A stretch of DNA of 64,000 nt from Sphagnum compactum (Eukaryota), in contig OZ234493.1 of NCBI GenBank assembly GCA_965153455.1, forward strand, positions 28,014,213 through 28,078,212. The letters are read 5' to 3'. Position 1 is the first letter of the stretch. Each line of letters starts with the position of its first letter. The position numbers were made by a program, and so were the translations under genes. Below are positions 8,329 to 64,000 of this stretch, piece by piece. Under the pieces are notes generated by a model that was not told where the DNA came from, made no database searches, and was given only the letters and a program-made list of their open reading frames with translations.

Positions 8329-10110
8329 AGCTCTGTTCTGAACTGGAGAGCCAATGACTGGCTGGTTGGAACAGTAACAGTATTGAAGCCAATTTCATCA
8401 TCATTTGTTGAAAGCTGTCAATGACTGAAACTAGCTGTTGTTGATCAAACTGTCGCATCCTGCTAGTGAGGCAAGAATTGCAAGAATTGTTTTTAACATT
8501 GATTTCCTTGGTCTTCCTTATAATTCAAAATTACATGTACAATTTATCATCAACCAATCAGATCTGAAAAGCTAAGAGTGAATATTCTAATGAGTTAAGT
8601 GTTGGTAGGAGACTAAAAGGTTTGGTGATTGACATTCTTGCTTGTTGAAAGTTTAGTCATTAACAGGTTTGGTTCAAGACTATGGAGAAGCCAAGGTCAA
8701 TGGAGTCTCTCCATAGGTTTCTAGTTGCAGAAGCAATAATTTCTTAGCTAGATTTTCTGATATGTAAATTTTATTCCTCGAACTGTTGATCTAATCTTTC
8801 CGATAAATTTGGAGTTGTCAATTATCAGTTTTGTATGTTTTGCTCAAGGCTTTTTGTAGTTGCAAGGAGTTTTTGATTACAGCTCAAATGGGTGGGCATA
8901 ATTGAGTCTTCCCATTTCCTCTAAATGCATGATGGAAACTCACTCAGTATCTGATACTGCCAGGAGCTGGTTAAGCCTGTGGGAAGGTACTTGAAAACAT
9001 GAAACCTAGTCAGGAACACACATGGTGCTGTTGTTGGACACACAAACTTGTAAGAGACTCTAACTGTGGCTTGTTCATGTCTTTGTGAATAGTGTTAATG
9101 TTATTCTGATTTCCATTTCTGTTTCCTAGTTATCAGATTTCTCTTTTTCCCTCCTGCAGTTTGCTGTTATGGTCATAATGTTTGATTAGGAATTTCTCTA
9201 ATCTCATTATCAGGTCATCTAATGATATCTATTGAGGTGGGCTTATGAATTGTCAGTATGGAGAGAAGTTTTCATTTCTTGATGAGGCTATATTCATACA
9301 AGTATATGAGTATATGATGCTGGAGAAAGAACTTGATGCATTGTAAGCATGGGAAGAAAAGGTTGATTTCCAATTCATGAAATACATTTGCTATTTGGGT
9401 TGTCATCAGTTTACATCCTTGAGAAGATGGCATTTGACAGATGGGTGGATGCTTGATGGTGCTTTCTTTGTTTAGATTTGGCAGGAAGTTTGCAATCTGA
9501 AGCAACCCTTGTATGAACACATTTAATTCCTTCCTCTGGCCCATGCAACATATAATATGATTTAAATCTAGATGATGTAAAGCTATTAATCCTCTTTAAA
9601 TCTTCTCTCTTGAATGGTTTTATGAGATTCTTGGTATAATTGATACATTATATTAAGAATTGTTTCAATAAGTGAAGATTGAATTTCATGTTATAGAATT
9701 AATGGAAGTGAAACGATTCCCTGAAAAATTTATATGTGTTGATATTGTAAGAATCAAGGAAGAAATAAGAATATATCAATATTTTGACCTATGTCCGTTT
9801 GATTGTGGTTGGTAGTGCGAAGTGATACAGAGCCCAAGTATGTTTTGGATTTAGATAATCTAAAGCTATCTTGTAGTCCTTCCACTCCATGAAGCACACA
9901 TTGTCCATCCACAATGTTTAGAAGTGGCGCACTGGATTCTATGAGTAAAGTTTTTTCATGCAGGGAAAGTGCTTTCAACACTCTACCCACCACAGAGCAC
10001 CAAGTGGGTTTCATGAGATCACTGAAGTCTCCTGTATAGATGAACCACAACAGTTCCCAAGGTTCCTTGGTAACCTATATTTTAACCCCTCCTACTTCCC
10101 TCTTCCTCAG

Positions 10111-10263
10111 GGTGAACCCCTTTCGGGGGAGGGAGGCAACAGCCCCTTCAGTCATTAGAAAAATTAGAGAAGTACAAAGGCGGGAGGAAGCGCCACCTGA
10201 TGGTGGCGCTATCACTCCCAAAGATGTCCATATGAAACCATTCAGATCTAAAGGCGAGCTCAA
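10111..10263 (-). mobile_element. 5'-truncated LINE copy (153 bp: ORF2 C-terminus plus 3' UTR) with 14-bp TSD
   Basis: Minus strand encodes IELAFRSEWFHMDIFGSDSATIRWRFLPPLYFSNFSND* (stop at 10148-10150), homologous to the LINE end at 52766-53020. Flanked by the direct repeat TCCCTCTTCCTCAG at 10097-10110 and 10264-10277. Confidence 0.85.
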
Positions 10264-10744
10264 TCCCTCTTCCTCAGAGAACTACCTATGTAAGTGGGTA
10301 AGTACCATAGGTAAGGAATGCAAGTGGTTACTATGATTGTACATAAGTCACTTGGTGGTTACTAGATAGGCAGATGCATGTGGATGATTAGAACTAAGGT
10401 TGATTGGTTCTAGGATTTCCAGGTCTTGCCTCCAACTTTGTTTTGAACATGAGACAACCTAAATTGGGTCCAGGGAAATTTTACATATCTGACAGAACCT
10501 TGGGTCCAGTTCCAAACTCAATTCTTCACATTTCTAGACTTTTAGTTCTTGATTCTTTAATAAAAAATTCCTTCATGAGTTCATTCGAAATTGAATGTAG
10601 TTTTGCCTCCTTATGCATAGTCCAAAATTGAAGATTTTTAATTATCAACATTATACAATTAATAGAAAGTGCCCACCTATATCATTTCTGATGTTAATAC
10701 TTTACCAAGCTTTCCTTTGAATTGTGCAAGTGCAAGATCAAATG

Positions 10745-11340: not shown

Positions 11341-11659
11341 AATAGCTCGTTGACACTAGAAGACATTTTGTCCTTTGCAACTGAAAAATCTACGACTACA
11401 AGTCCTAAATGACTATATGTATGACTTTAGTTATAAACTATTACTTTGAATCTTATGTGTAAAAAAGTCATAGTCATATATAAGTGGGGCATGTGACTAG
11501 TAGATAATGAGGTGGTAACAAGATGAGGGATCTTAGTTTTCATCATGTTTATTTCATCTATATGGCATCCATGATTAATGACAAAGTGATGTGGATCTCC
11601 AATTGTCATTACAATGATTAAAAAATGACCACAAGTCATTTGTTATGAACATAAACAAC

Positions 11660-12020
11660 CCTACCCTCACCCCCACCTACCTATGTACCTACCTATTTAC
11701 CTACCCACCCACCCATCTATCAATCTACCTACTTGCTTACCCACCAAACCACCTACCTACCACCTACCTATCTACCTACCCACCTACCTACCTATTATCC
11801 ACTTACCTACCTATCTATTTACTTACCTACCCACCTACCTACCTACTTATTTACTATCCACTTACCTACCTACTTATTTACCTACCTACCCACCCATTTA
11901 TTTGCCTACCTACCTACCCTTCCACCCACCCACCTATTTGCTTACTTACCTACCCTCCCACCCACCCACCTACTTGCCTACCTACCTACCTACTACCTAT
12001 CCTCCCACCTTCCCACTCAC
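11660..12020. repeat. (ACCT/ACCC)n degenerate tetranucleotide tract, left part
   Basis: Read directly from the sequence. Explains the spurious PTY/L-rich ORFs in all three + frames. Confidence 0.9.
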
Positions 12021-15132: not shown

Positions 15133-15560
15133 CACCCACCTACCTACCTACCTCCCCACCTACTCACCTTCCTACATATTTACCTACCTTCCTATGCACC
15201 CAACCACCACCTACCTACTTACTATCCACCTATTCACCTTCCTCCCTAATGACCTACCCTCCTATGCACCAAACACCACCTACGTACTTATTACCCACTT
15301 ACCTCCCTACCCACCCACCTACCTACTTACCTACCCAACCACCCATCCACCCACCTACCTGCCTACCTACTTACCACTTACCTTCCAATCCACCCACCCA
15401 CTCACTTGCCTACCCACCCATAGTGCACACATGACCCACCTACTTACTTACCTACCTAACCACCCATCCACTTACTTACCTACTTAGTCACCCACCTACC
15501 TATTTTATCAACCTACCTACCTTTTATTTCCTATTTCCTATAACCTACCCTTTTCCTACC
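15133..15560. repeat. (ACCT/ACCC)n degenerate tetranucleotide tract, right part
   Basis: Read directly from the sequence; continues the 11660-12020 tract. Confidence 0.9.
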
Positions 15561-29650: not shown

Positions 29651-30560
29651 GCACTCCCAACTCCTTGAGGGACTCAAATGTGAATCCAAACAAAAAACAA
29701 TGGAAGAAGAAAGAGTTAGGGCACGCTCCCTGGCTCGCAGCACTTTGGAGGGGTAGAGGGGTGTGCTGGAGCTCCAGGATGGGACTAGGAAAAATGACAA
29801 GCATCAACTATTCACACAGACCTGCACAAAATCAACACAAAGTGGTTAGTGCATAGTTGGAGCACTTTTGGTGTTAGGACGAGTCACGAGCAACTCGGAC
29901 TCACAAGACTCACCATGGCCCGGACTTGGGGGAAGCCACCACCTTCCCCCTTATACTATACTATGTGCCTCTCCACGAAGCCCATATCCAAATGGCATTT
30001 TGTCCCGGGACTTCCAAATGGGAGTCCCGAAATTGCAAAAGTTGGGACTCTCACAACTTTGGGGCCTCATAACTTTGCAAGCAGACCTCCGATCGAGATA
30101 AGATTTGAAGCAAAGTTGTATCCCTTGTCGAGAGCTTTCCAATGGTATGTCTCACGCCACCTGCATACACCAAAGTCGAGTCGATTCCTGACTTTTAGTG
30201 GTCGGGAGTCAAATTGTCAATCTGACTTCCGACCCTTCTTTTGGCCATAACTTGTGATTTAAATGTCCAAATGGGGCATGCGAGCCCATTTTAAACATCT
30301 ACGTTCCAAGAGCTTTTCAATGATATAAAGAACTCTTCAAGCCATTGAGTTTTGACCCCTGAAATTGTCCTCTGAAGGTTTGGGAGTCCACTGGGACTCC
30401 ATCTCTCAAAGTGGGAGTTGCCTTGGGATCGTCAGGGTTCATTCCCTCACACTTTTTTACACTCCCGGGAGCATGTGATGTGACTCCTGGGTTTTCCTCT
30501 TGGCTTGCAACCTTGCAAACCCTTCGCCTTAGTCGCGAGCCCAAGGCTAGGGTTATGACA
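29651..30560 (-). mobile_element. Solo LTR (~910 bp), gypsy-related family
   Basis: Minus strand starts TGTCATAACCCTAGCCTT and shares GGGAGTCA..TTTGACTCCCGACCACTAAAAGTC and TATAAGGGGGAAGGTGGTGGCTTCCCCCAAGTCCGGGCC blocks with the LTRs at 53021 and 59150. It ends ...GGAGTTGGGAGTGC without the terminal GTCA. No PBS, PPT or internal domain adjacent. Confidence 0.88.
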
Positions 30561-35879: not shown

Positions 35880-36210
35880 TAAAACCCTAGAAATAATACT
35901 TTCTAAACCAAAGAAAAGTAAACTAGAAATGTAAACCCTAGGTAAATGCAACCCTAAAATTATTCTATAAACCTTAATCCTATTCCAAAAACCCTAACCC
36001 TAATAATTGATTGTGACCTATGACCATTAACTCCACATAGTTGCAAACCTAACCCTAACCTTAATTTGAAACCTTAACATCAATAAAAACCCTAACCCTA
36101 GTAATTGACTTTGACCATTGATTGTTGATTCTACATAATTGCAACCCTAACCCTAATTATTGATTTTGACCATTGATCATTGATTCAAAACAATTGCAAC
36201 CCTAACCTTA
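35880..36210. repeat. Degenerate telomere-like (ACCCTA[A]) motifs embedded in short tandem units
   Basis: Repeated AACCCTAACCCTAAT.ATTGA.TTTGACC..TGA..TTGCAACCCTAA units. Confidence 0.65.
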
Positions 36211-36569
36211 ATTGTTGACTTTTGAGCTTTGACAATTGCCTTGTCAAACTGAAACACATGTCAAAATTTGTTTAGTTCAAAAAGGTGAAATGTGTCATTT
36301 ATTCATTAAATTATCATTGAATAATTATTAATGAATGTTTTATGGGTGCAAAATATTTTACATTGGTGATGGGCTAAACATGTGGTCAATTCTCATTAGT
36401 TCATAAGACATTATATCTATATATATATATTCGGATGATTTAATTCTTATTAATTAGTTTAATTACAGTTGGCACCTTCTCCTTTGATAAATGCTTGCCA
36501 TGTGCAGCCACAACATTCGATTAAAATATTATTTCAATAATTTTAAACCAATGATGATTTACTTTGTTT

Positions 36570-52136: not shown

Positions 52137-52765
52137 TGTCGCAACCCTAGCCTTGGCTCGCGACCAAGGCAAGGGGGTCGCAAGTGTGCGGGCCTATAAG
52201 TAGACCTGGGGGTCATATCACATGCTCCCGGGAGTGCAAAGAGTGTGAGGGAGTGAACCCTCACACTCCCAAGTGAACTCCCATGTTGGGAGTTGGTGAT
52301 AGTGGAGTCCCAAAAGGACTCCCGAAACTTCAGAGAGCATTTTGAGGGGTCAAAACTCAATGGCTTGTTGCATTCTTTACATCAATGAAAAGCTCTTGAA
52401 GTGTAGATGTCTAAAATGGGCTCGCATTGCTCATTTGAACATCTGAAACACGAGTTATGGCCAAAAGAAGGCCCGGGAGTCGAACTCCCGGGAGTCGACC
52501 AGTTTTGACTCCCGACCACTAAAAGTCAAGAATCGACCCGAAATACTTGGCTACAGAAAACATGCAACATACCGTTGAAAAGGTCTCGACGAGACCTACA
52601 ATTTTGCTTCAGACGGCGAGTCGATCGGAGGTTTGCTCCGATAGTTACGAAGCTTCAAAGTCGCGGGAGTCCCGAAAATGCGCGATTTCGGGACTCCCAC
52701 GCGGGAGTCCCGGGAGTCCCGGGACAAAATGGCCATTTGGATGCCACCCTTGCGACGAGTCACAG
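52137..52765 (+). mobile_element. 5' portion of an LTR, interrupted by the LINE insertion
   Basis: Starts TGTCGCAACCCTAGCCTT and is collinear with the solo LTR at 30560. It stops at GCCATTTGGATG...GAGTCACAG, where related LTRs continue AG.ATA.TATAAGGGGG. Confidence 0.85.
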
Positions 52766-53020
52766 GGTGAACCCCTTGCGGGGAGGGAGGCATCAGCCCC
52801 TTCAGTCATTAGAGAAATTAAGAAAGTACAAAGGGGGGAGCAAGTGCCACGAGATCGCAGCCTCGCCCTCCCCAAAGATCTGGCCGTGAAGCCACTTGGA
52901 CTTAAAGGCCTGCTCAATGTCTAACTGCTTAACCTAGCTCCTAATCTGCCTAGAAGATCTAATGGCCTTCCAGGTGGCCATGCCCACCTCGGCCGTGGCT
53001 TCCCAGGACTGGAGCAGGAC
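52766..53020 (-). mobile_element. 3' end of L1-type LINE (ORF2 C-terminus plus short structured 3' UTR)
   Basis: VLLQSWEATAEVGMATWKAIRSSRQIRS*VKQLDIEQAFKSKWLHGQIFGEGEAAISWHLLPPLYFLNFSND* (stop at 52802-52804). Same strand as the LINE body at 59970-64000 and homologous to 10111-10263. Confidence 0.85.
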
Positions 53021-53840
53021 TGTCGCAACCCCACTTTGTCCAAGTGTGGGGGTGAAGCCCAACACTTGGAAAAGTTGGAGGTTTGGAGTCCTCCGGGACT
53101 CCCGAATGTTTAGAGCTCGACAGCAAGGGGCAAAACACCTCGCATTGGAGTGTTCTTGGTGTCATTGAAAAGGTCTTGAAACGTAGATATCGAAAATGGC
53201 CTCGCATTGGCCATTTCGACATCTGCAGCCCAAGTTATGGGCAAAAGAAGGGCCGGGAGTCAAACTGGCAATTTGACTCCTGACCACTAAAAGTCAGGAA
53301 TCGACCCTTTGCCGACGTCGCCTCAAGGAGTGCGACATGGCGTTGAAAAGATCTCGACAAGGGCTACAACTTTGGTTCAGACCTCGTTGCGATCGGACTT
53401 CGGAAACGGGAGTTATGACCGTTCAAAGTCCCGGGAGTCCCGCCGGGACAATTTCGGGACTCCATTTCGGGAGTCCCAACAAAATGTGCCATTTGGATGT
53501 AGCCTCCGTGGTGAGCCGCAGAGATAACTATAAGGGGGAAGGTGATGTCTTCCCCCAAGTCCGGGCCGTGGTGAGTCAAGTAGTCCGAAGTGCCCGTGGC
53601 TTGTCCCAACACCCAAGGGTGTTCCCGAATGTGAACTAACCCATTTGTGGTTGGTTTTGGATGCAGATTTGTGCTTGATCTACTAGTCCATCTTCCTAGT
53701 CTAATCCCGGGGCTTCCAACTCGACCCTCTACCCCTTTCTAGAGTTGGAAGTCGGGAGCGTGCCCTTGGGTCCCCACTTTCCGCAACTTCACATTGGTGA
53801 ACCCTCAAGTGGGTTCACCCCGGGACCAAGGAGCGCGTCA
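53021..53840 (+). repeat. 5' LTR (820 bp)
   Basis: TGTCGCAACC...GGAGCGCGTCA. About 20 substitutions relative to the 3' LTR by manual alignment, no indels. Confidence 0.96.
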
Positions 53841-53842
53841 CG

Positions 53843-53854
53843 TGGTATCAGAGC
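53843..53854 (+). other. Primer binding site complementary to tRNA-iMet 3' end
   Basis: TGGTATCAGAGC, 2 nt after the 5' LTR. Confidence 0.95.
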
Positions 53855-53883
53855 TCAAGGTGAAGCTCAACGACATTTTTGGG

Positions 53884-56800
53884 ATGGCACCCAAGAAGAA
53901 CCGGAAGCTAGCCCCAGAGCCTAGGTCCGAGGAGCCCGTCGATGACCTAGTAACCCCGCCCGAATCGATTGGGGAGGAACCAAACTTCCGGGAGGACCAA
54001 GATGAGCCCGAGGTTGAACCCGAGAGTGAGGAGGAACAACGGAGCTCGGTCCTATTCACCCCGGAGCAACTTGAAGTCCTCCTCAAGATGAATAGGCCCG
54101 ACTTTGGTGAGTTGGTGGCGGCCCTCAAAACGGGGGCCTCCAAAGGTGAAAGGTTTCAACCGGCCAAGCCCGGGAATTTCGATGGTGCCCGAGACCGTAA
54201 GGTGGTGGATGCTTGGCTTGCGGAAATGGATGATTATATCCATGCGACCAAGGTTGGACGGAATTCCGCCGTGGAGCTTGCCTAATCCTACTTGAAAGGC
54301 TATGCCGCCACATGGTGGCGGACGGTGAGACAAGAGGAGGGCAAGAACCATGGCTATATGTGGGAGTTTTTCAAGGATCGCATTGAGGCGGAGTTCATTC
54401 CGAGAAACTCTGATTACATTTCTAGGTGCAAACTCCGCGACCTTGTGAATGCCACCAATGAAAATTTGAGGCAATATGTGAGGGCCTATTCCGAACTCAT
54501 GTTGGAGATCCGGCACATGCACGAGTTGGATCGTGTGTGCCAATTCGTGATGGGACTTCCGACTTGGGCCAAGCGAAAGCTTGAGGAGAGTTGGCCCGCC
54601 TCCTTATCCGAGGCCATCACAAAAGTGGAGAATTTCTCGGATGTGGGGCGGAGCAACAAATCCGGGTTCAAGAAGGACAATAAGTTCTTTCACAAAAAGC
54701 CGAGGCATGAGGGGGAATGGAACCGGGGGCAAGGTAGCCCAACCAAGGATAAGCCAAAACAATTCCAAGGCTCGGGGTTCAAGCCAAAAGGTAGCTTGGT
54801 GAAAAAAGGGGCTCCTTTCAAAGGGAGCCAAACCAAGGGAGACTTTGGAGCAAAGCCCAAGGGTGCATGTTTCAATTGCAACGAGGTGGGGCATTACTCC
54901 AAAGATTGTCCCAAATCCAAAACGGGGGTTGGGAGCTCTAAGGTACTTGCTCTCAATGCCACTTTAGCCCAACCGGAATGCAATCGACTTATATTCTTGA
55001 AAGGGAAGATTGCTAAACGAGAAATCTTATGTCTTTTGGACACAGGGGCCTCCCACAACTTCATAACTCGGGAGAGCGCCGAAAGGATGGAGCTCCACTT
55101 GGAGGAGCTCAAGGCACCCATTGAGGTGCATTTCGCGGATGGGGTTCCCCATCCAACTACACTACAAGCAAAGGGAGTGCCTCTCCAATTGGGAAATTGG
55201 AGAGGAAAGGTGGACTTGTTGGTTTCCACCTTGGGTGGAATGGATTGCGTTCTCGGAATGGAGTTCATCACCCAAAACAATGTGCTCATAGAAGGGCACA
55301 ATAGGTTGATTAGAATCCCATCTAAAAGTGGGATTGTACGAGTTAAGGCACATGAGTTGCCTTGTGTGGGTGGTTCCACCATCCACTTCATGTTAGGAAA
55401 AGCTTGGGAAAGAGAATGCGTGGGGGGTTTCGGCATGATGTGTGTCATGCGGGTGTTGGACGAATATGAGCCCAAGGAAGCCACCAAGTTGGTGACTTCC
55501 GCCAAGTGCATAAAGCAAGCCTTACAAGAGTTCCCGGATGTGATGCCCGAAGAGTTGCCCGAAGACTTGCCCCCGAGAAGACGAGTTGATCATGCGATTG
55601 AAGTGATACCGGGAGTGGAACCGCCCGCCAAGGCCCCATATAAAATGAGCCACGAGGAGTTGAAGGAACTCAAGGTTCAACTTGAGGAACTCCTCGCGAA
55701 AGGTTACATCAAACCAAGCAAGTCACCATATGGGGCACCCGTCCTTTTTGTTCACAAGAAGGATGGGACTTTGAGGATGTGTGTGGATTATAGAGCACTC
55801 AATAAGGCAACGGTGAAAAACCGTTATCCTTTACCTCGCATCGATGATCTATTTGACCGTCTCTCGGGAGCCAAGGTTTTTAGTAGAATTGATCTACGTT
55901 CGGGATATTACCAAATAAGGATCGAGGAAGGGGACGAAGAAAAGACCGCTTGTCGCACAAGGTATGGGTCATACGAGTTCTTGGTGATGCCCTTTGGGCT
56001 CACCAATGCACCCGCAACATTTTGCACCCTCATGAATGACATTTTCCGCGAATGGCTTGATGATTTTGTGGTCGTCTACATAGACGACATTTTGATTTAT
56101 AGTAGCTCCATGGAGGAGCATGCGGAGCACCTTCGCAAGGTGTTCCAAAGGCTAAGGGAAAACAAGTTGTATGCCAAGCTCGAGAAGTGCGAATTTGGGG
56201 TGACGGAAGTGGATTTCCTTGGGCATAGGATAACTCAAGATGGTTTGATGATGGATGATCACAAGGTCAAGGCGATTTTGGATTGGGAGCCGCCTAACTC
56301 GGTTCCCGCCTTGAGATCCTTTTTAGGATTGGCCTCCTATTATCGCAAGTTCATAAAGAACTTTGCGAGAATAGCGGCCCCTTTGACAAACCTCTTGAAG
56401 AAGTCCGCCGTCACTTATGATTGGGATGAAGCATGCGACGAAGCCTTTGGAACGTTGAAGGGCATTTTGGTGAAGGCGCCGGTGTTGAAGTTGCCCGACT
56501 TTGACAAGGAGTTTGAAATCCATTCCGACGCCTCCGACTTTGCAATTGGGGGTGTCATAGTGCAAGATGGAAGACCGGTGGCCTTTGAAAGCAAGAAGTT
56601 GAGTGAGACGGAGCGAAGGTGGCCAACTCACGAGAAGGAAATGTGGGCGGTCATACATTGTCTCAAGACTTGGGGCCATTACATAGGCTCCAAAGATGTG
56701 GTGGTGTGGACCGACAATGTGACCTTGAAGTACTTCGCAACTCAACCCAAGTTGTCATCAAAACAACAAAGGTGGCAAGACACATTGGCCTTGTTCAATG

Positions 56801-58365
56801 TGGACATCCGGCACAAGCCGGGAAAGGAGAACATAGTCCCCGATGCTTTTAGCCGGAAACACCAACTTAGAGTGGTGTATGTGGGAGAGTCGGAACTTCA
56901 AAACGAAGTTAGATTAGCAAACCGCCGGGATGCTTTTGCCAAGGAGGTAAGGCAAAGCATCCAAAATGGAGCCAAGTCCCACTTCCACATGAAAAATGGA
57001 TTGTTGTGGTACAAGCAAAACCGACTCTATGTGCCGGAGGGGAAAATTAGGGACACACTTTTGAAGGAATGTCACGATGGACCGCTTGCGGGCCATGGTG
57101 GTGCAAAGCGCACCACAACATTCCTAAAAAAGTCCTACTATTGGCCCAACTTGAAGGATGATGCGGAGGAGTACGTGAAGACTTGTTTAACTTGTCAACA
57201 AAACCGGACCCTCAACAAGAACCAAGCGGGTTTGTTGCAACCTTTGCCAATTCCCGAAGGGCCGTGGGAAAGTGTGTCAATGGACTTTATGGTAAGTTTG
57301 CCCCCTTCGAAAGGGTTCGATGCCATCATGGTTGTGGTGGATCGATTTAGCAAAATGGCACACTTCATTCCCACAAAGGATGAAGCCACGGCTCAAGAGA
57401 CGGGGAGGTTGTTCTTCTCCCACATTTTCAAGCATCACGGCCTTCCAAAGGACATAGTGTCGGATCGGGATCCAAAGTTCACGAGTAAGTTTTGGAGGGC
57501 TTTGTGGAAGCGAATGGGGTCGGAACTCAAAATGAGCACTTCATTCCGCCCTCAAACCGATGGACAAACCGAGAGGGTGAACTTGGTGATCCAACAATTC
57601 CTAAGGAATTATGTGGCGGCGGATCAACAAGATTGGGTGGATCATTTGGAGTTAGCCGAGTTTTGTTACAATAACTCGGTACATTCCGCAACGGGATCCA
57701 CCCCATTCCAAATGGTGACGGGCAAGTCACCAATTGTGCCCATGACTTGGGCCGCACAAGGACAACCTTCGATTGATGCAAGTGAGGAAGTGCCAATGGT
57801 CACACAACTTGATCAAGAAAGAAAGCGCTTGTGGGAGTTGGCAAAAGCCAACTTGGAAAAGGCGCACAAAAGGTACAAAGATTTTGCGGACAAGTCCCGA
57901 CGAGAGGTGAAGTTTCAAGAAGGAGACGAGGTGTGGTTGAATATAAAGAACTTCCGGTTGCCCGAAGGGTTAAGTCATAAGTTTATAGGCCCATATGCGG
58001 GTCCATTCAAAGTGTTGGAAAAGAAACTTTCCGACACTTATAAGTTAGAATTACCGGAAAATCTTAGAGTTCATCCCACATTTCATGTTTCCCTTTTGAA
58101 GCCGGTCTCCCGCGACGCCTCAAGGCCTAATAGAGAGCATCACTCAAGGCCTCCACCGAACTTGGTTCATAATGAACCCGAGTTTGAGGTAGAGGCCGTG
58201 CTCAAATCAAGGCAACTTAGAGGGCGAGAGCGGGAATATTTCGTTAAGTGGAAAGGCTACCATGCAATAGAGGCTTCTTGGGTGAATGAATCCGACATGG
58301 AACATGCCCAAGAAGCCATAGAAGAATTCCACACTAGACCGGCGAAGAAAAGACGTAGAACGTGA
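53884..58365 (+). pseudogene. gag-pol polyprotein, single frame with one premature stop (TAA 54283-54285)
   Basis: MAPKKNRK...[18 protein letters not shown] knuckle [14 protein letters not shown], protease [18 protein letters not shown], RNase H DASDFAIG, integrase H..H..C..C and SMDF/SDRD/QTERVN, chromodomain FEVEAVL...YFVKWKGY...SWV. Confidence 0.95.
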
Positions 58366-59137
58366 TGAGGACATCACCTTTCTTTTAGAGGGGGAGAATT
58401 TCATAAAATGTACCACATCAAGTTGCAAGTGAAATAAAAAGGGCTTTAAAACTTCCAAGAGATTGTATCATGAAAAATTTGTTAGGGCTTCGTCAAATAG
58501 GGTTGTGGCATGGACAAATAGAACTCTCTTGCGTAGGCCCAAATCAAAATCGGACTCCTACTATGGGGTTGAGGAAACTTGGCCCCAAAAGAGGAGGCAA
58601 GCAAGGTGAGCTTGCGGGGACATGCACATGCCTTAAGTGCATCCCAAAGGGTTGGTTGGTAGTGTGGCCAACGCGGGAAGTCATGACCCCGCTCGCATAC
58701 TTTAAGTGTAGTTTGGGACTTGGGTTTGGCAAACCTAAATATCCTTTCTCGTACCTTGATAAGCAAATCTTTTAGTGAAGACTTGGTTGTTGTGACCAAG
58801 GCGCGAGATAGGGAAAGGAGTCATGTCAAGTAGCTTAGGTCAAGAGTAGACTTGACTTAAGTCCTCATGAAGGGAAGGATGGAAAAAGGTTCCTCCCAAA
58901 TGAGGGCTTCGTCAATTAGGCTAGTTTAGTCTTTTGACGAAGCAAAGAAAGAGGGTTCCCTACAAGACCCTTTTGGACTTGTCAAGAAAGTGTTGGAAAC
59001 TTGGGGACGCCTAAGTTAGCTTGAGACAAGGTCCGAGCCGCAAGAGTCGGCAAATGGCCAAGGATCCAAAAGAAAGCAATTGCAATTGTATGAAGGAAAA
59101 TTCTAAGTGTCAATGAGGACATTGACCTCTTTCTTCT

Positions 59138-59149
59138 AGTGGGGGGGAG
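59138..59149 (+). other. Polypurine tract
   Basis: AGTGGGGGGGAG immediately before the TG of the 3' LTR. Confidence 0.9.
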
Positions 59150-59969
59150 TGTCGCAACCCCACTTTGTCCAAGTGTGGGGGTGAAGCCCAACACTTGGAA
59201 AAGTTGGAGGTTTGGAGTCCTCCGGGACTCCTGAATGTTCAGAGCTCGACAGCAAGGGGCAAAACACCTCGCATTGGAGTGTTCTTGGTGTCATTGAAAA
59301 GGTCTTGAAACGTAGATATCGAAAATGGCCTCGCATTGACCATTTGGACATCTGCAGCCCAAGTTATGGGCAAAAGAAGGGCCGGGAGTCAAACTGGCAG
59401 TTTGACTCCCGACCACTAAAAGTCGGGAATCGACCCTTTGCCGACGTCGCCTCAGCAAGTGCGACATGGCGTTGGAAAGATCTCGACGAGGGCTACAACT
59501 TTGGTTTAGACCTTGTTGCGATTAGACTTCGGAATCGGGAGTTATGACCGTTCAAAGTCCCGGGAGTCCCGCCGGGACAATTTCGGGACTCCATTTCGGG
59601 AGTCCCAACAAAATGTGCCATTTGGATGTAGCCTCCGTGGTGAGCCGCAGAGATAACTATAAGGGGGAAGGTGGTGGCTTCCCCCAAGTCCGGGCCGTGG
59701 TGAGTCAAGTAGTCCGAAGTGCCCGTGGCTTGTCCCAACACCCAAGGGTGTTCCCGAATGTGAACTAACCCATTTGCGGTTGGTTTTGGATGCAGATTTG
59801 TGCTTGATCTACTAGTCCATCTTCCTAGTCTAATCCCGGGGCTTCCAACTCGACCCTCTACCCCTTTCTAGAGTTGGAAGTCGGGAGCGTGCCCTTGGGT
59901 CCCCACTTTCCGCAACTTCACATTGGTGAACCCTCAAGTGGGTTCACCCCGGGACCAAGGAGCGCGTCA
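59150..59969 (+). repeat. 3' LTR (820 bp)
   Basis: TGTCGCAACC...GGAGCGCGTCA. Confidence 0.96.
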
Positions 59970-62900
59970 CTTGGAGTCCCACGTGCCCACCGGGAGCCCT
60001 CTGTTGAGGGTCAGCCAGATGAGGGCTCCCACTTTGCGTGGACGGGCGTTGTGCCAGATCCTAGCAATGATCTGAGTGGTCGTGGAGTTCCGGAGGCTCA
60101 GCCTTTGGATGAATTCGACAATTTCGGGGGGGCGGTGAGGTTTTCTTGCGTTTTGGTAGCCCTTCTTGGATGAGTAACCGAAGAAAGGAGCGTCTCCCAT
60201 GTTGCGCGGTTGCTGCCAGTGCTAGTCTCCCGGGTCCCATTGGAGGTCGGAGATAAATCCGGATCCAAGAATCCAGTAAAGGAGGGTTTCTTACCTGGGG
60301 GGGGGAGGTCCTTTGCCAGTCTGAGGGTTGTACGGTGGTTGTCCTGAGCGAGTACCCTGACAGGTTCGTACCCCTCCAAGGGGATGGTGATGGTGCAGGA
60401 TCCGGTGGTTGGGATGCGGCCCGTGTGGGAGGTTCTCCTGAATTCTGACACGTTGGCGGTGTTTTGGGTTGTCCCCACGACTTGGTAGACCCATTCCGGT
60501 GGGCCGATTTGCCCGGGTTCCTTCTTGCTAATCCATTCTCCTGCTGAGGGGACGTTGTTGGAGGTAGCCGGGTCCCATGGTATGCTCGCAATTATGAGGT
60601 CTCTATTCCGCCTGTTGCTTGGGTGGAAGTTGACCCCTAGGGCGGGGAGGCCTTTCCACTCCTTTTCCTCAAAGTCCCAAAAATCCCTGACTCTTGAGTA
60701 TCCGGCGTTCGCAAGGGAGTTCCCTTCGCTCTTGCCGCTGAGACCCAGGGGCTTGCCTTCTTGATTCACAATAAGAGGGTTCCCAAAGACCTGTTGTCTG
60801 AGGGTCTCAGCTGAGTTGGTTGGTTCTGATTTTCAGAGCCCCGGCCTCACACTCATCCAAGCGTGGAGGATGCTCTTCCACAGGGAGGTGGGAGGTCTTT
60901 TGAGTTTTGTGGCAGCAAACATCCAGTTGATGTCCTGCGTGGAGGGGCCCAGGCCGTGGACCGGGAGTCTTACTTGATTGGCCCTGTGTCTCAGAAGCTC
61001 TTTCCATGGCTCTCCACCTGGCTCTAGGCCCCTAATGAAGAGTTTTGCTAAGAGAGCTTCGGACTGGACCTTTGGGTCGATGATTCCCAGTCCTCCCTGG
61101 TCAGTGGGAAGGACCAAGGTTTCCCATTTGACTTTAGCCCTGGCGTTGGAAGCTTTCCCGCTCCAGATAAAATTCCTCACGATCCCTCAAATCTGGCTGC
61201 ACATGGCCGGGTTCGGGTTCCAGGGCGCCGCCATGTACCACATGGAGGCAAGAAGGACTTGATTCGCTACGAGTATTCTCCCTGCCAGGGAGAGTCGACA
61301 GGTGCTCCAACTGATTAGTTTGCCCTTGAAGGCCATGACCATTTTGCTAAAGTTGGCTTCGGGGGGGAGGTGGAATCCGACTTGGATTCCCAGGTACCTC
61401 ACCCCTTTGCCTTCCGGGACCCACTGGAGGCCCACTTCCTGGCCCCACTCCCAATCTTTTTCCCTTTTGCTGGCCCAGATCGCAGCTATTTTATTCCAAT
61501 TGACTTTCGCTCCGGAAGCTTTGTAGAATATATCTAGGACCCTCTGGGTTCTTTCCATATTTTCGCGCGTGCCTTGGAGGTAGAGCGCTGTGTCATCGGC
61601 GAAAGTTTGGTCCCTGATCTTCCTTCCTCCCGGGAGGGTCAGGCCTTCTACACCAAAGCGGGGGTCGTCCAACATATGCCCTAGGACGTCCGTCGCCAGG
61701 ATGAAGAGGTATGGTGAGAGGGGGCAACCTTGCCTCACCGATCTGGTGAGAGGGAAGGCGCTCCCCTCTACTCCATTTAGCTTGATGGTTGACGAGGCCG
61801 AGGTGTAGAGGGAGCTCACCCAACGGATCCATTTCGGGCAGAAGCCGAGCTTTGCCAGAGCTTCAAAGAGGAAGCTCCACTCGATTCTGTCAAAGGCCTT
61901 TTCGAAGTCTAGAAGCAAGAGAACTAAGTCCTGATTGCTTTCTTCAGCCCATTTTTGGGCTTCTTGTGCCAGAAAGGTGTTATCGAGAATGCTCCGACCC
62001 TCGACAAAACCCGTCTGGCTGGGTCTGATCACATTCGGGAGGAGGTCCTGTAGTCTCCTGGCCAATGTTTTGGCGAGGATTTTGTATAGACTCCCCAAAA
62101 GCGTGATCGGTCGCCAGTTTCCTATCTTGGCATGGTCTCCGGATTTGGGGATCAGCGTAATGAGACCTTTGTTGGTCCATCCTGATGTCTCCCCTCTTCT
62201 GAGCATTGCCGAGAGAGCCTGAAGCAGGGTCGGGGAGATCTCTTCTATTAGCTCCTGAAAAAATTCCGTCGGGATGCCATCGCATCCCGGCGCTTTTTCC
62301 TTCGGCATTGCCGCGATGGCCTCCTTGATTTCCTTCAGTGTGAGTTCCTTTATTAGCTCGTCATTTGCCACGTTGGAGACCCGGGTCGGGGTGCTATTCC
62401 AGCATACCTCCCGGGCTTCCGATGTGCCGGGCGCACTGGCCTCTGAGGTGTACAGGTGCGCGTAGAAAGACCGGACGTAGTGGGCCAAGTCCTCCTGTCC
62501 CGTGATGTCCCCCCCCTCAGTTTTGAGCTCTTTGAGAGGCGTACGCTTTCTCCCGATTCGGTGGAAGTCGAAGAAAAGTTTTGAACACGTGTCCCCATAC
62601 CTGAACCAGGAGGCCGAGTTGAGCTGGTGGTTCCTTGCGACCTTTTCTTGGAGTGTGTCGGCCAGGTGGCCTTGGGCCACTAAGAGGATTTCCCTAGCTG
62701 GCTCGTCTTCGGGGTCTCTCTGCAGTTGGACCTCCGCCAACCTGATTTTTTGTTGGAGGTTTCTGACTCTGGCCCCCTTCGCTTTCTTTTTTTCGCGCGC
62801 GATTTTGATGTTGCATTGGAGCACCCTGCCTGAGGCCGCCTCCAGCCAGGCTGGCCAGTCCGCGTCCTGACTGGGCGTGGGCTGTATACCTGTCCACGCA

Positions 62901-63766
62901 TCGAGGAGGGCTGACCTGCTCTCTTCCTCTTTCAGGAGGGCTGTGTCGAAGTAGATGGCAGGTACGGGCGGGGCGGAGGTGCATCCCCAGATGGTGAGCA
63001 CGAGGGGTGAGTGGTCGGAGATCCTCCGGATTGAGGGGGCGGCTTCTATTCTCCCCCCTCTTGCATCCAGCTCTTGAGAGACAAGGAACTTGTCAATTCT
63101 GGAGACGGCCGACCCCTGGCCCTTTCTCCCATTATCAAAAGTAAAATCCTTCTTGGACATCTTCCTGAAGCTATCAAGGATCCAAGCATCGGTGAGTCCG
63201 TACTGGAGAGTCATTTGATGCCAGGCAGCTGATTCTCTCCTGTGCATTCCCCTTTGTCCGGCCGTGCCTCTGGTTCCCATTTCTTCGAAGTGGTTGAAGT
63301 CCCCTCCAATTATGGTGTGGTCGGCTGTGAAGTTGGCCTCGCTAATCTTCCTCCACAAGGGGGCCCTGCTTCTGGACGTTTTTGAAGCGTAAGTGTTTAC
63401 GATAGTTAGCTCTGAGTTGTCCGGGAGGTGGAGGGTTACGCATTGGACCCTTCCCTCTATTAGAATTTTGTCCTCCTTGACTAGTGGGGCCGTCATTCTG
63501 TCCACCAGGATGGCGGTCCCTGCGCTGGTTCGCTGAGAAGATCCCATTGGGATTCCGGGGTTCCCGAATGACCTTCCTTGCCAGAAGTCAAGACCCCTTG
63601 TCGAGTTGGCCGTTCCCTGTTCGTCCAGGTGGTGCTCTTGTATGAGCAGAATCTGGGGCGGATTCTGGAGGGAGGCCAGCCAGGTCCTGATGAGCTTTTG
63701 CTTGTTTGAATCCTTCCCCAATCCCCTCACGTTGAGGGAGACAATTGTTATAGGTCGTTCAGACAT
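59970..63766 (-). pseudogene. LINE ORF2 (APE endonuclease, reverse transcriptase, C-terminal region), disrupted
   Basis: MSERPITIVSLNVRG, QEHH, GGDFN, SRIDKF, SDHSP (APE). NWRPITLL, LLLDFEKAFD, RQGCPLSP, FADD, RYLG (RT). In-frame stops at 61187-61189, 60833-60835 and 60222-60224, frameshift near 60285. Cut by the gypsy LTR after NRGLPVGTW. Confidence 0.93.
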
Positions 63767-63998
63767 GGTCTGAGTGCGTTTGGGCGGCCGATTGGCCGAT
63801 CGATCCCGTGTGGTCAAAACGAACGACCTCTTGGTCTCCTTGATCGGTGTCCTCTCCTGATTGTGAGGCCTGGAACAGGTCCGATGGGTTTGAGGGAACA
63901 AAGGTCGAGAGGTCGAGCTTTACATACCTCCTCTTTTTTCTAGTCGCTTGAGGGGATGCCAGCAGACTTGCAGACGTGCTTTTGCGCGTCTGGCGGTC
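63759..63998 (-). CDS. C-terminal 79 aa of probable LINE ORF1 (partial)
   Basis: Open frame from the window edge: DRQTRKSTSASLLASPQATRKKRRYVKLDL...HSDHV*. Its TGA overlaps the ORF2 start (ATGTCTGA). Confidence 0.6.
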   Translation of the reverse strand, partial: DRQTRKSTSASLLASPQATRKKRRYVKLDLSTFVPSNPSDLFQASQSGEDTDQGDQEVVRFDHTGSIGQSAAQTHSDHV

Positions 63999-64000
63999 TG

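Follow-up and report, generated by a model that had tools for sequence, protein, structure and literature searches.

The stretch of Sphagnum compactum DNA analysed here (64,000 nt of contig OZ234493.1, positions 28,014,213 to 28,078,212; hereafter the window) carries two diverged copies, designated A and B, of a LINE (long interspersed nuclear element) that ends without a poly(A) tail. We consider it likely that these copies represent a tail-less L1-type family with a 3' end of the stringent type, composed of two hairpins, and that one clade of the family homes to a single site in the long terminal repeat (LTR) of a chromovirus. A more specific form of this proposal, namely that a bryophyte lineage of L1 type, devoid of poly(A), homes in antisense orientation to a position about 8 nt from the TATA-like box of the LTR, and that the terminal CUG of its structured 40-nt untranslated region (UTR) pairs with the target, is held with less assurance, the balance being slightly in its favour. 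Stringent plant L1s and target-specific LINEs are both kinds of element that are already known; the site-specific clade is a more novel result than the tail-less end, and it goes beyond anything claimed in a first-pass annotation of this DNA.

Both copies lie on the minus strand, with the parts listed below in window coordinates (ORF, open reading frame; RT, reverse transcriptase; APE, apurinic/apyrimidinic-type endonuclease; TSD, target-site duplication).

59975..64000, minus strand: body of copy A, with the ORF2 for APE endonuclease and RT at 61190-63919; the 5' end lies outside the window
52805..53016, minus strand: final ORF2 coding part of copy A (...LPPLYFLNFSND*), located downstream of the point where an LTR element has inserted
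52766..52804, minus strand: 3' UTR of copy A, comprising the stop TGA, hairpin 1, a linker, hairpin 2 and a tail
52804-52802, minus strand: stop codon TGA of copy A
52800-52787, minus strand: hairpin 1 of copy A (GGGGC 52800-52796, loop TGAT 52795-52792, GCCTC 52791-52787)
52786-52784, minus strand: linker CCT of copy A
52783-52772, minus strand: hairpin 2 of copy A (CCCC 52783-52780, loop GCAA 52779-52776, GGGG 52775-52772)
52771-52766, minus strand: tail TTCACC of copy A
52763..52765, minus strand: CTG beyond the tail of copy A, found in LINE copies as well as in the target LTR and hence potential microhomology or the opening bases of the TSD
10111..10263, minus strand: copy B, 153 nt, 5'-truncated, with the same 3' UTR layout and ending at 10111
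10097..10110, no strand assigned: copy B TSD lying 3' of the LINE, tccctcttcctcag
10264..10277, no strand assigned: copy B TSD lying 5' of the LINE

Read in the RNA sense, both copies end in ...GGGGTTCACC (at 52766 in copy A and 10111 in copy B), and neither has poly(A) or a simple repeat after it. The two copies are 78.5% identical over approximately 157 nt, and their differences in the last 40 nt are confined to loop 1, the linker and loop 2, which read TGTT, CCTC and GAAA in copy B, the rest of the layout being that of copy A. This pair of diverged copies sharing a tail-less end and a common layout, the starting point of the first-pass annotation, is present in the sequence exactly as described there. 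Both ends are followed by CTG (52765-52763 in copy A, 10110-10108 in copy B), as are most other copies. Copy B is flanked by a perfect 14-nt duplication, tccctcttcctcag, which had been taken to mark the true end of the element; the duplication stands, but the CTG lies inside it, and since CT(G) belongs to the TSD the end of the LINE is defined only within 0-3 nt.

Judged from its predicted domains (APE endonuclease, RT and zf-RVT), the element is an L1-type LINE, in agreement with the first-pass annotation. The 910-amino-acid ORF2 frame at 61190-63919 on the minus strand matched Exo_endo_phos (PF03372, 1.4e-07) and RVT_1 (PF00078, 2.2e-37), and its closest solved relative was human L1 ORF2p (6.2e-64, residues 52-895, covering endonuclease and RT), with R2 proteins at 3.8e-24. 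A protein search with the window ORF2 returned many relatives, with identities of up to 94%; one 90% protein cluster, the representative of which is 68% identical to the window ORF2, includes a protein of Sphagnum magellanicum, and a Cryptomeria protein gave 362 bits (41% identity over 42% of the query). Among the 120 protein matches listed, the Xenopus Tx1 ORF2 scored 274 bits (28% identity, 88% coverage) and was outscored by plant proteins with zf-RVT. Copy A itself is discontinuous, being split by a Ty3/gypsy element (53017-59974, plus strand), beyond which the LINE resumes at 53016 and continues to 52766. Past 61190-63919 its frames decay, until they break off where zf-RVT begins, near 59975. 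The zf-RVT domain (PF13966), the Cys-rich C-terminal domain of plant L1s, was found in intact copies (L024, 29.3 bits; L054, 27.5 bits; cut-off 27.5), with 21.0 bits in L047, whereas copy A shows only the start of the domain (0.007) because approximately 351 nt are gone there. By comparison with other copies this sequence is absent exactly at the chromovirus insertion and, judged from intact copies elsewhere, corresponds to the CCHC part of zf-RVT.

Further copies were collected by scanning metagenomes with a 22-nt degenerate pattern that comprised the stop codon and hairpin 1. At least 120 loci matched, and all locus counts given below rest on the matches listed: 115 of these loci carry the LINE end and five are unrelated, a recurrence far above anything that chance would give. 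With the two window copies added and loci with identical downstream sequence removed, 93 distinct loci remained. In addition, parts of the stretch were matched by public sequencing runs, namely DNA runs from four organisms and RNA libraries that carry the label moss or plant metagenome. Contigs from three DNA runs, of as many organisms, and one RNA run were aligned to 52690-53016 with the likeness set at 80%, and in each of these four runs the LINE tail is multi-copy. LINE-type contigs begin to fit at 52763/52764, with dissimilar loose ends before that point, and contigs of the flanking repeat continue past 52765 into another, shared sequence, which is the empty target site. Among the variants listed, three sites within 52766-52810 vary at 10% or more (rarer variants may exist): 52793, in loop 1, where most copies have UGUU; 52801, where about half of the copies have U in place of the final A of TGAA; and 52805, a synonymous change. 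None of the three falls within the stems of either hairpin. The LINE family is a large one and has been active recently. An nhmmer search with a profile of the tail against the window and all collected loci found no additional copies, and a looser pattern (hairpin 2 plus tail) gave 11 matches in viral_contigs and at least 120 in genome_contigs, all attributed to chance, with LINE context in none of those listed. Rfam, searched with 52650-53016 at E values of up to 10, returned sub-threshold chance matches only, and a scan for promoters and terminators of bacterial type, which is uninformative for a sequence of this kind, gave nothing.

The absence of a poly(A) tail extends beyond the window, as the earlier annotation would have it: an A-run of seven or more occurs in none of the 89 loci that have at least 25 nt past hairpin 2. 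The TGA lies directly 5' of hairpin 1, leaving a 3' UTR of about 40 nt that is conserved across diverged subfamilies. Upstream translation yields the same conserved C-terminus in nearly all loci, often stop-free over 110 residues, the frame staying open as far as this TGA in most copies, and for this reason we regard the TGA as the genuine ORF2 stop and the UTR as about 40 nt long. Eleven copies, 41-448 nt in length, have both junctions within the locus, and in these a TSD of 13-17 nt follows directly after TTCAC(C), starting with CT in eight and with TC in three; 5' truncation is extreme in the TSD-flanked copies. TSD-like 10-nt matches in L003, L031, L080, L006 and L057 were set aside as internal repeats or chance. 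Most copies read TTCAC(C/T)CT(G/C/A), and CT(G) is part of the TSD in every copy where this can be read. The presence of CTG in the TSD suggests microhomology priming, and the CT(G) pattern would also fit a preference for the nick site.

Short (TC)4-6 runs follow hairpin 2 in four loci of one subfamily, and a C-run in one locus. About 15 nt past hairpin 2, that subfamily (L012, L044, L067 and L073) ends in TTC(TC)n, the number of units varying from 4 to 6, and L010, L011, L068, L114 and L115 have, ahead of the final T(G), C-runs that differ in length. Such variable C-runs and TC-runs have the appearance of slippage as reverse transcription begins.

The insertion site itself is best described with reference to four LTRs in the window, two of which belong to the element that splits copy A.

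52137..52765, plus strand: left part of the chromovirus-type LTR hit by copy A, the LINE being antisense; junction ...GAGTCACAG^
53017..59974, plus strand: Ty3/gypsy chromovirus inside copy A, with LTRs at 53017-53845 and 59146-59974 and an ORF at 54286-58365
53521^53522 and 59650^59651, no strand assigned: empty LINE target sites in the chromovirus LTRs
29718..30560, minus strand: third related LTR, with the empty site TATACTATACT^ATGTGCC between 29962 and 29963

In 40 of the 93 distinct loci, copy A included, the LINE end is joined to the identical coordinate of a chromovirus-type LTR, and the LINE is always antisense. The target reads ...CCCCCTTATAGTATACT^CTG... in the sense of the LINE and ...GCCGCAG^AGATAACTATAAGGGGG... 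in that of the LTR, where the nick lies approximately 8 nt upstream of a TATA-like box. Empty target sites are present in three window LTRs and occur at high depth in reads. On the nick's far side the LTRs are well conserved; the first ~18 nt after the CTG vary strongly among them. A tree built from the last 205 coding nt of 76 rows (17 rows that were truncated or had less than 205 nt upstream were omitted) contains one clade, with support of 100/99, in which 30 of the 33 rows are LTR-site copies and to which copy A belongs. Seven other LTR-site copies are scattered over the remaining 43 rows, and, given the well-supported branches, the LTR-site label must have changed at least seven times. 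Other subfamilies, that of copy B included, have unrelated, scattered flanks with only CT(G) in common.

Some further features of the target LTR may be recorded here. The TATA-like sequence CTATAAGG occurs at 53529-53536 and 59658-59665, 8 nt from the empty LINE target sites. In two DNA runs, the summed contig depth of the target LTR family over 52690-52765 is 10-40 times that of the LINE tail, a figure that reflects depth and not copy number; the target LTR is thus a very abundant repeat whose sites are mostly empty. One locus, L035, holds a truncated LINE of approximately 450 nt with the same ~175-nt LTR segment (LTR ~340-518) on both sides, spanning -598 to +552 relative to the pattern in LINE-sense orientation. 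A normal TSD does not explain this arrangement; it could be the product of a template switch onto a read-through LINE transcript.

We examined the structure of the 3' UTR both in single sequences and in an alignment of the 3' ends of 90 copies, pair counts being made on the 86 distinct sequences. In single-sequence folds the minimum-energy structure consists of the two hairpins, and the RNAalifold consensus of the 90 copies likewise contains hairpin 1 (five pairs) and hairpin 2 (three pairs), so that both hairpins proposed earlier appear in the consensus; the closing stem is predicted in neither case. Pairing in hairpin 2 extends to 95.9% of cells. One of its pairs occurs as C-G (67 sequences), as U-A (11) and, in intermediates, as U-G (five), and double-change cells number 11 against 2.8 in shuffled alignments, with a covariation score of 0.053 against 0.037, both values lying above all 500 shuffles. 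Independently of the alignment, the four pairs of hairpin 2 can be formed in 85 of 87 parsed copies, even as loop 2 takes the form of 22 different strings of 3-8 nt. Column identity over 73 copies is 0.86 and 0.87 in the stems of hairpin 2, 0.91 in the linker and 0.84 in TTCA, as against 0.58 in loop 2, 0.56 in CTG and 0.29 in the flank; the corresponding values for the coding sequence are 0.78 at codon positions 1-2, 0.59 at position 3 and 0.715 overall, which places the stems roughly level with positions 1-2 and loop 2 with position 3. The part of the UTR outside the search pattern has an identity of 0.79, or 0.84 without loop 2 (73 sequences, from loci chosen by an adjacent exact match). 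The claim that stems are kept better than loops accordingly stands for hairpin 2 and cannot be extended to hairpin 1, which is invariant and whose stems were fixed by the search pattern, its invariance therefore carrying no information. From these comparisons we read the two-hairpin end as being under selection and the 40-nt end as probably structured, the evidence for RNA pairing being moderate for hairpin 2.

A number of observations weigh against the reading given at the outset and should be set beside the above. The energy with which the 45-nt end folds does not improve on that of shuffles (z = -0.56 and -0.55) and is ordinary for its composition. The covariation comes from a single base pair: the number of pairs with a double change is 1, against a shuffled mean of 1.1, and is reached in 470 of 500 shuffles, and the 11 U-A sequences, which sit on a small number of basal branches within a single clade, may reflect one or two events only. 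When the structure is slid by +3 columns it scores 0.070, compared with 0.053 in register. To these must be added the uninformative invariance of hairpin 1 noted above, and the fact that every metagenome locus was chosen by an exact 22-nt match adjoining the scored region, whereby young copies are enriched. RNA contigs continue past the LINE end; because the runs are represented by contigs only, neither RNA 3' ends nor the level of expression can be read from them. There is no partner short interspersed nuclear element (SINE) with the same tail among the 115 loci, each of which either is preceded by LINE coding sequence or is a truncated LINE between TSDs, a weak test given that the pattern held the stop-codon context. 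Both junctions were seen for truncated LTR-site copies, and no 5' junction of a full-length one. Finally, recognition of the hairpins by the RT is something we infer solely by analogy.

Several of these points would also be accommodated if the 40-nt end were kept as a linear sequence, whether as a protein-binding or DNA motif or through recent descent, and the hairpins had no role in the RNA. The unremarkable folding energy, the one covarying pair, slid controls that are not clearly beaten and the lack of information from hairpin 1 are all in keeping with this explanation, which we nevertheless regard as unlikely, since loop 2 is free to vary while the four pairs are kept, a C-G to U-A switch is accompanied by U-G intermediates, and the stems are conserved above the third codon positions of the same sequences. 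The opposite proposal, of more structure rather than less, was that made in the first-pass annotation, where a closing stem TGAA/TTCA was thought to unite the two hairpins in a three-way junction with conserved GNRA caps. TGAA and TTCA are indeed complementary, and loop 2 is GNRA, in both window copies. Over the wider sample this model is barely tenable: 80.8% of the cells of the closing stem are paired, no pair is compensated and there is no covariation, the A-U pair (19-56) being unpaired in 45 of the 86 distinct sequences and the U-A pair in 16 of the 86. Moreover, the 5' half of the stem overlaps the stop codon TGA, and the stem is found in no predicted fold; with the stem unsupported, the three-way junction is unsupported also. 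Nor are the GNRA loops conserved, as loop 2 conforms to GNRA in only 49 of the 87 parsed copies (54 of 92 if five GNRA copies with a broken outer pair are included), with GCAT or GTAT in 16 and other sequences in the remainder.

As regards the LTR site, the identical junction and orientation of 40 loci, 30 of them in one LINE clade, could at first sight have arisen from one old insertion that was multiplied as a passenger of an amplifying LTR retrotransposon. The data point strongly the other way. Within the LTR-site clade the identity of the LINEs is 86.1%, compared with 69.3% for the adjoining 230 nt of LTR; in 363 of 378 pairs the LINE parts resemble each other more closely than the flanks do, and the two identities are uncorrelated (r = 0.11), LINE copies that are 95-97% identical occupying LTRs that are 60-75% identical. 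Three truncated LTR-site copies differ in length (L008, ~440 nt; L056, ~90 nt; L084, 193 nt) and each has its own TSD of 13-17 nt with the same CTG start, and the seven LTR-site copies outside the clade come from other subfamilies. Taken together, the individual TSDs, the spread over clades and the excess of LINE over flank identity show, at the level of sequence, that the LTR-site copies are independent insertions and not one multiplied insertion; passenger amplification with the LTR element, disfavoured by the TSDs, the tree and the divergence of LINE versus flank, is left with very little probability. The specificity might be supplied by RNA rather than protein, in that master copies resident in LTR sites would give rise to read-through transcripts whose flank pairs with LTR targets and guides priming. 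In the RNA library, contigs do extend past the LINE end into flank resembling an LTR (loose ends at 52763), tail and target have CTG in common, and in other LINEs specific integration can become stronger when the element is co-transcribed with its target (Kojima 2015, PMC4494074). On the other hand, the ends of transcripts cannot be read from RNA contigs, which may also contain DNA, and the variability among LTRs of the ~18 nt past the CTG would make for poor pairing. Guidance of this kind thus seems to us a doubtful, if still arguable, explanation, the conserved far side of the nick and the variable ~18 nt weakly favouring choice of the site by protein rather than by read-through RNA.

Our preferred reading of a tail-less family with a two-hairpin end and an LTR-homing clade can be expressed as a working model. 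The 3' UTR of the RNA carries a pair of short G/C hairpins and a UUCAC(C/U) tail, after which CU(G) usually comes. By analogy with other LINEs, the element's own ORF2 protein may recognize the hairpin region of the LINE RNA, and reverse transcription would start within the last few bases of that RNA, the primer being the nicked target strand ending in ...CAG-3', which could pair with the terminal CUG. One clade would insert at the fixed position of the chromovirus LTR either through the specificity of its endonuclease or through pairing with a co-transcribed flank, both of which are possible. A full-length LINE at the site would have a near-palindromic TATAGTATA-type element just 5' of it, which could matter for transcription.

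A poly(A) tail is typical of the L1 clade without strictly defining it, and the usual view of plant L1s is of 'relaxed' elements that depend on poly(A). Stringent LINEs are known elsewhere, examples being UnaL2 of the eel and ZfL2 of the zebrafish (both of the L2 clade), SART1 of the silkworm, R1 and R2; in elements of this type a short 3' stem-loop is read by the element's own RT, independently of poly(A) and with a precise start that in some cases involves microhomology with the target. Most of the known target-specific LINEs come from animals (R1, R2 and the Tx1 group). The present family resembles UnaL2, ZfL2, SART1, R1 and R2 in its lack of dependence on poly(A), and several of those elements are also target-specific; they differ from it in clade and structure, and in that recognition has been shown by experiment for them whereas here it is inferred from sequence.

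Among flowering-plant L1 families, 224 of 233 end in poly(A) and nine have no 3' repeat (Ohshima 2012, PMC3472496). The monocot '1a' L1 lineage (LINE1-1_ZM) has a conserved 3' hairpin that is common to ZmSINE2/3 and sorghum SINEs, its motifs including a UCU loop and a 3'-flanking CGAG (PMC3472496), and it was from this one monocot lineage and one alga that stringent recognition was argued to be ancestral in green plants (Ohshima 2012, PMC3472496). The 1a lineage is the closest parallel in kind: a plant L1-clade element in which the last ~45 nt are far more conserved than the body, with a hairpin that shows compensatory changes and a proposed need for specific 3'-end recognition. Unlike it, the family described here lacks the UCU loop and the CGAG flank, its loops being UGUU/UGCU and mostly GNRA or GYAU; it has two hairpins, a UUCACC(CUG) end and no SINE partner that we could find, and it combines a host of bryophyte type with a target-specific clade. 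The Tx1 group, in the sections of the sources consulted, comprises target-specific L1-clade LINEs described from animals, of which Tx1L inserts into the transposon Tx1D (Kojima 2015, PMC4494074; Ohshima 2013, PMC3747384). Like Tx1L of Xenopus, the LTR-homing clade consists of APE-type relatives of L1 that insert at a fixed site inside another transposon; unlike the Tx1 group, its target is a Ty3/gypsy LTR, and its zf-RVT domain and closest named relatives are from plants.

In the parts of the literature consulted, with Repbase reports and subscription journals outside the scope, the family is undescribed and there is no site-specific LINE of land plants, which is weak evidence of absence; the portions seen of a 2025 review of plant transposon localization and of the Sphagnum genome paper mention neither this family nor a site-specific LINE. 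A tail-less L1-type family with a two-hairpin end adds a case from an early-diverging land plant to the argument for ancestral stringency and, if it is both true and undescribed, the homing clade would represent the first land-plant LINE with a specific target. A LINE with a single reliable landing position in an abundant LTR offers a simple system for the study of site choice by APE-type LINEs and, if homing is true, a natural 'safe-harbour' retrotransposon whose endonuclease or RNA code would be open to dissection; elements of this target-specific kind are of interest because tools for targeted insertion could be modelled on them. Site specificity also explains a recurring pattern of nested repeats that would otherwise confuse repeat annotation in these genomes.

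The chromovirus that interrupts copy A is a complete element and not part of the LINE. Its LTRs are 97.3% identical, it has a primer-binding site of tRNA-Met type, and an intact frame of 1359 amino acids encodes gag, protease, RT, RNase H, integrase and a chromodomain in that order. Its flanks (52990-53016 and 59975-60010) contain no matching TSD; this, together with the ~351-nt loss at the insertion, suggests a deletion, for instance by recombination between two neighbouring elements. Elsewhere in the window, positions 35987-36211 hold three copies of a spaced repeat of 55-98 nt around plant telomere-like CCCTAA(A) motifs, and two microsatellite-like blocks rich in CCTA/CCCA (11652-12009 and 15139-15519) lie approximately 3.2 kb apart and include 27 overlapping copies of a 69-nt register.

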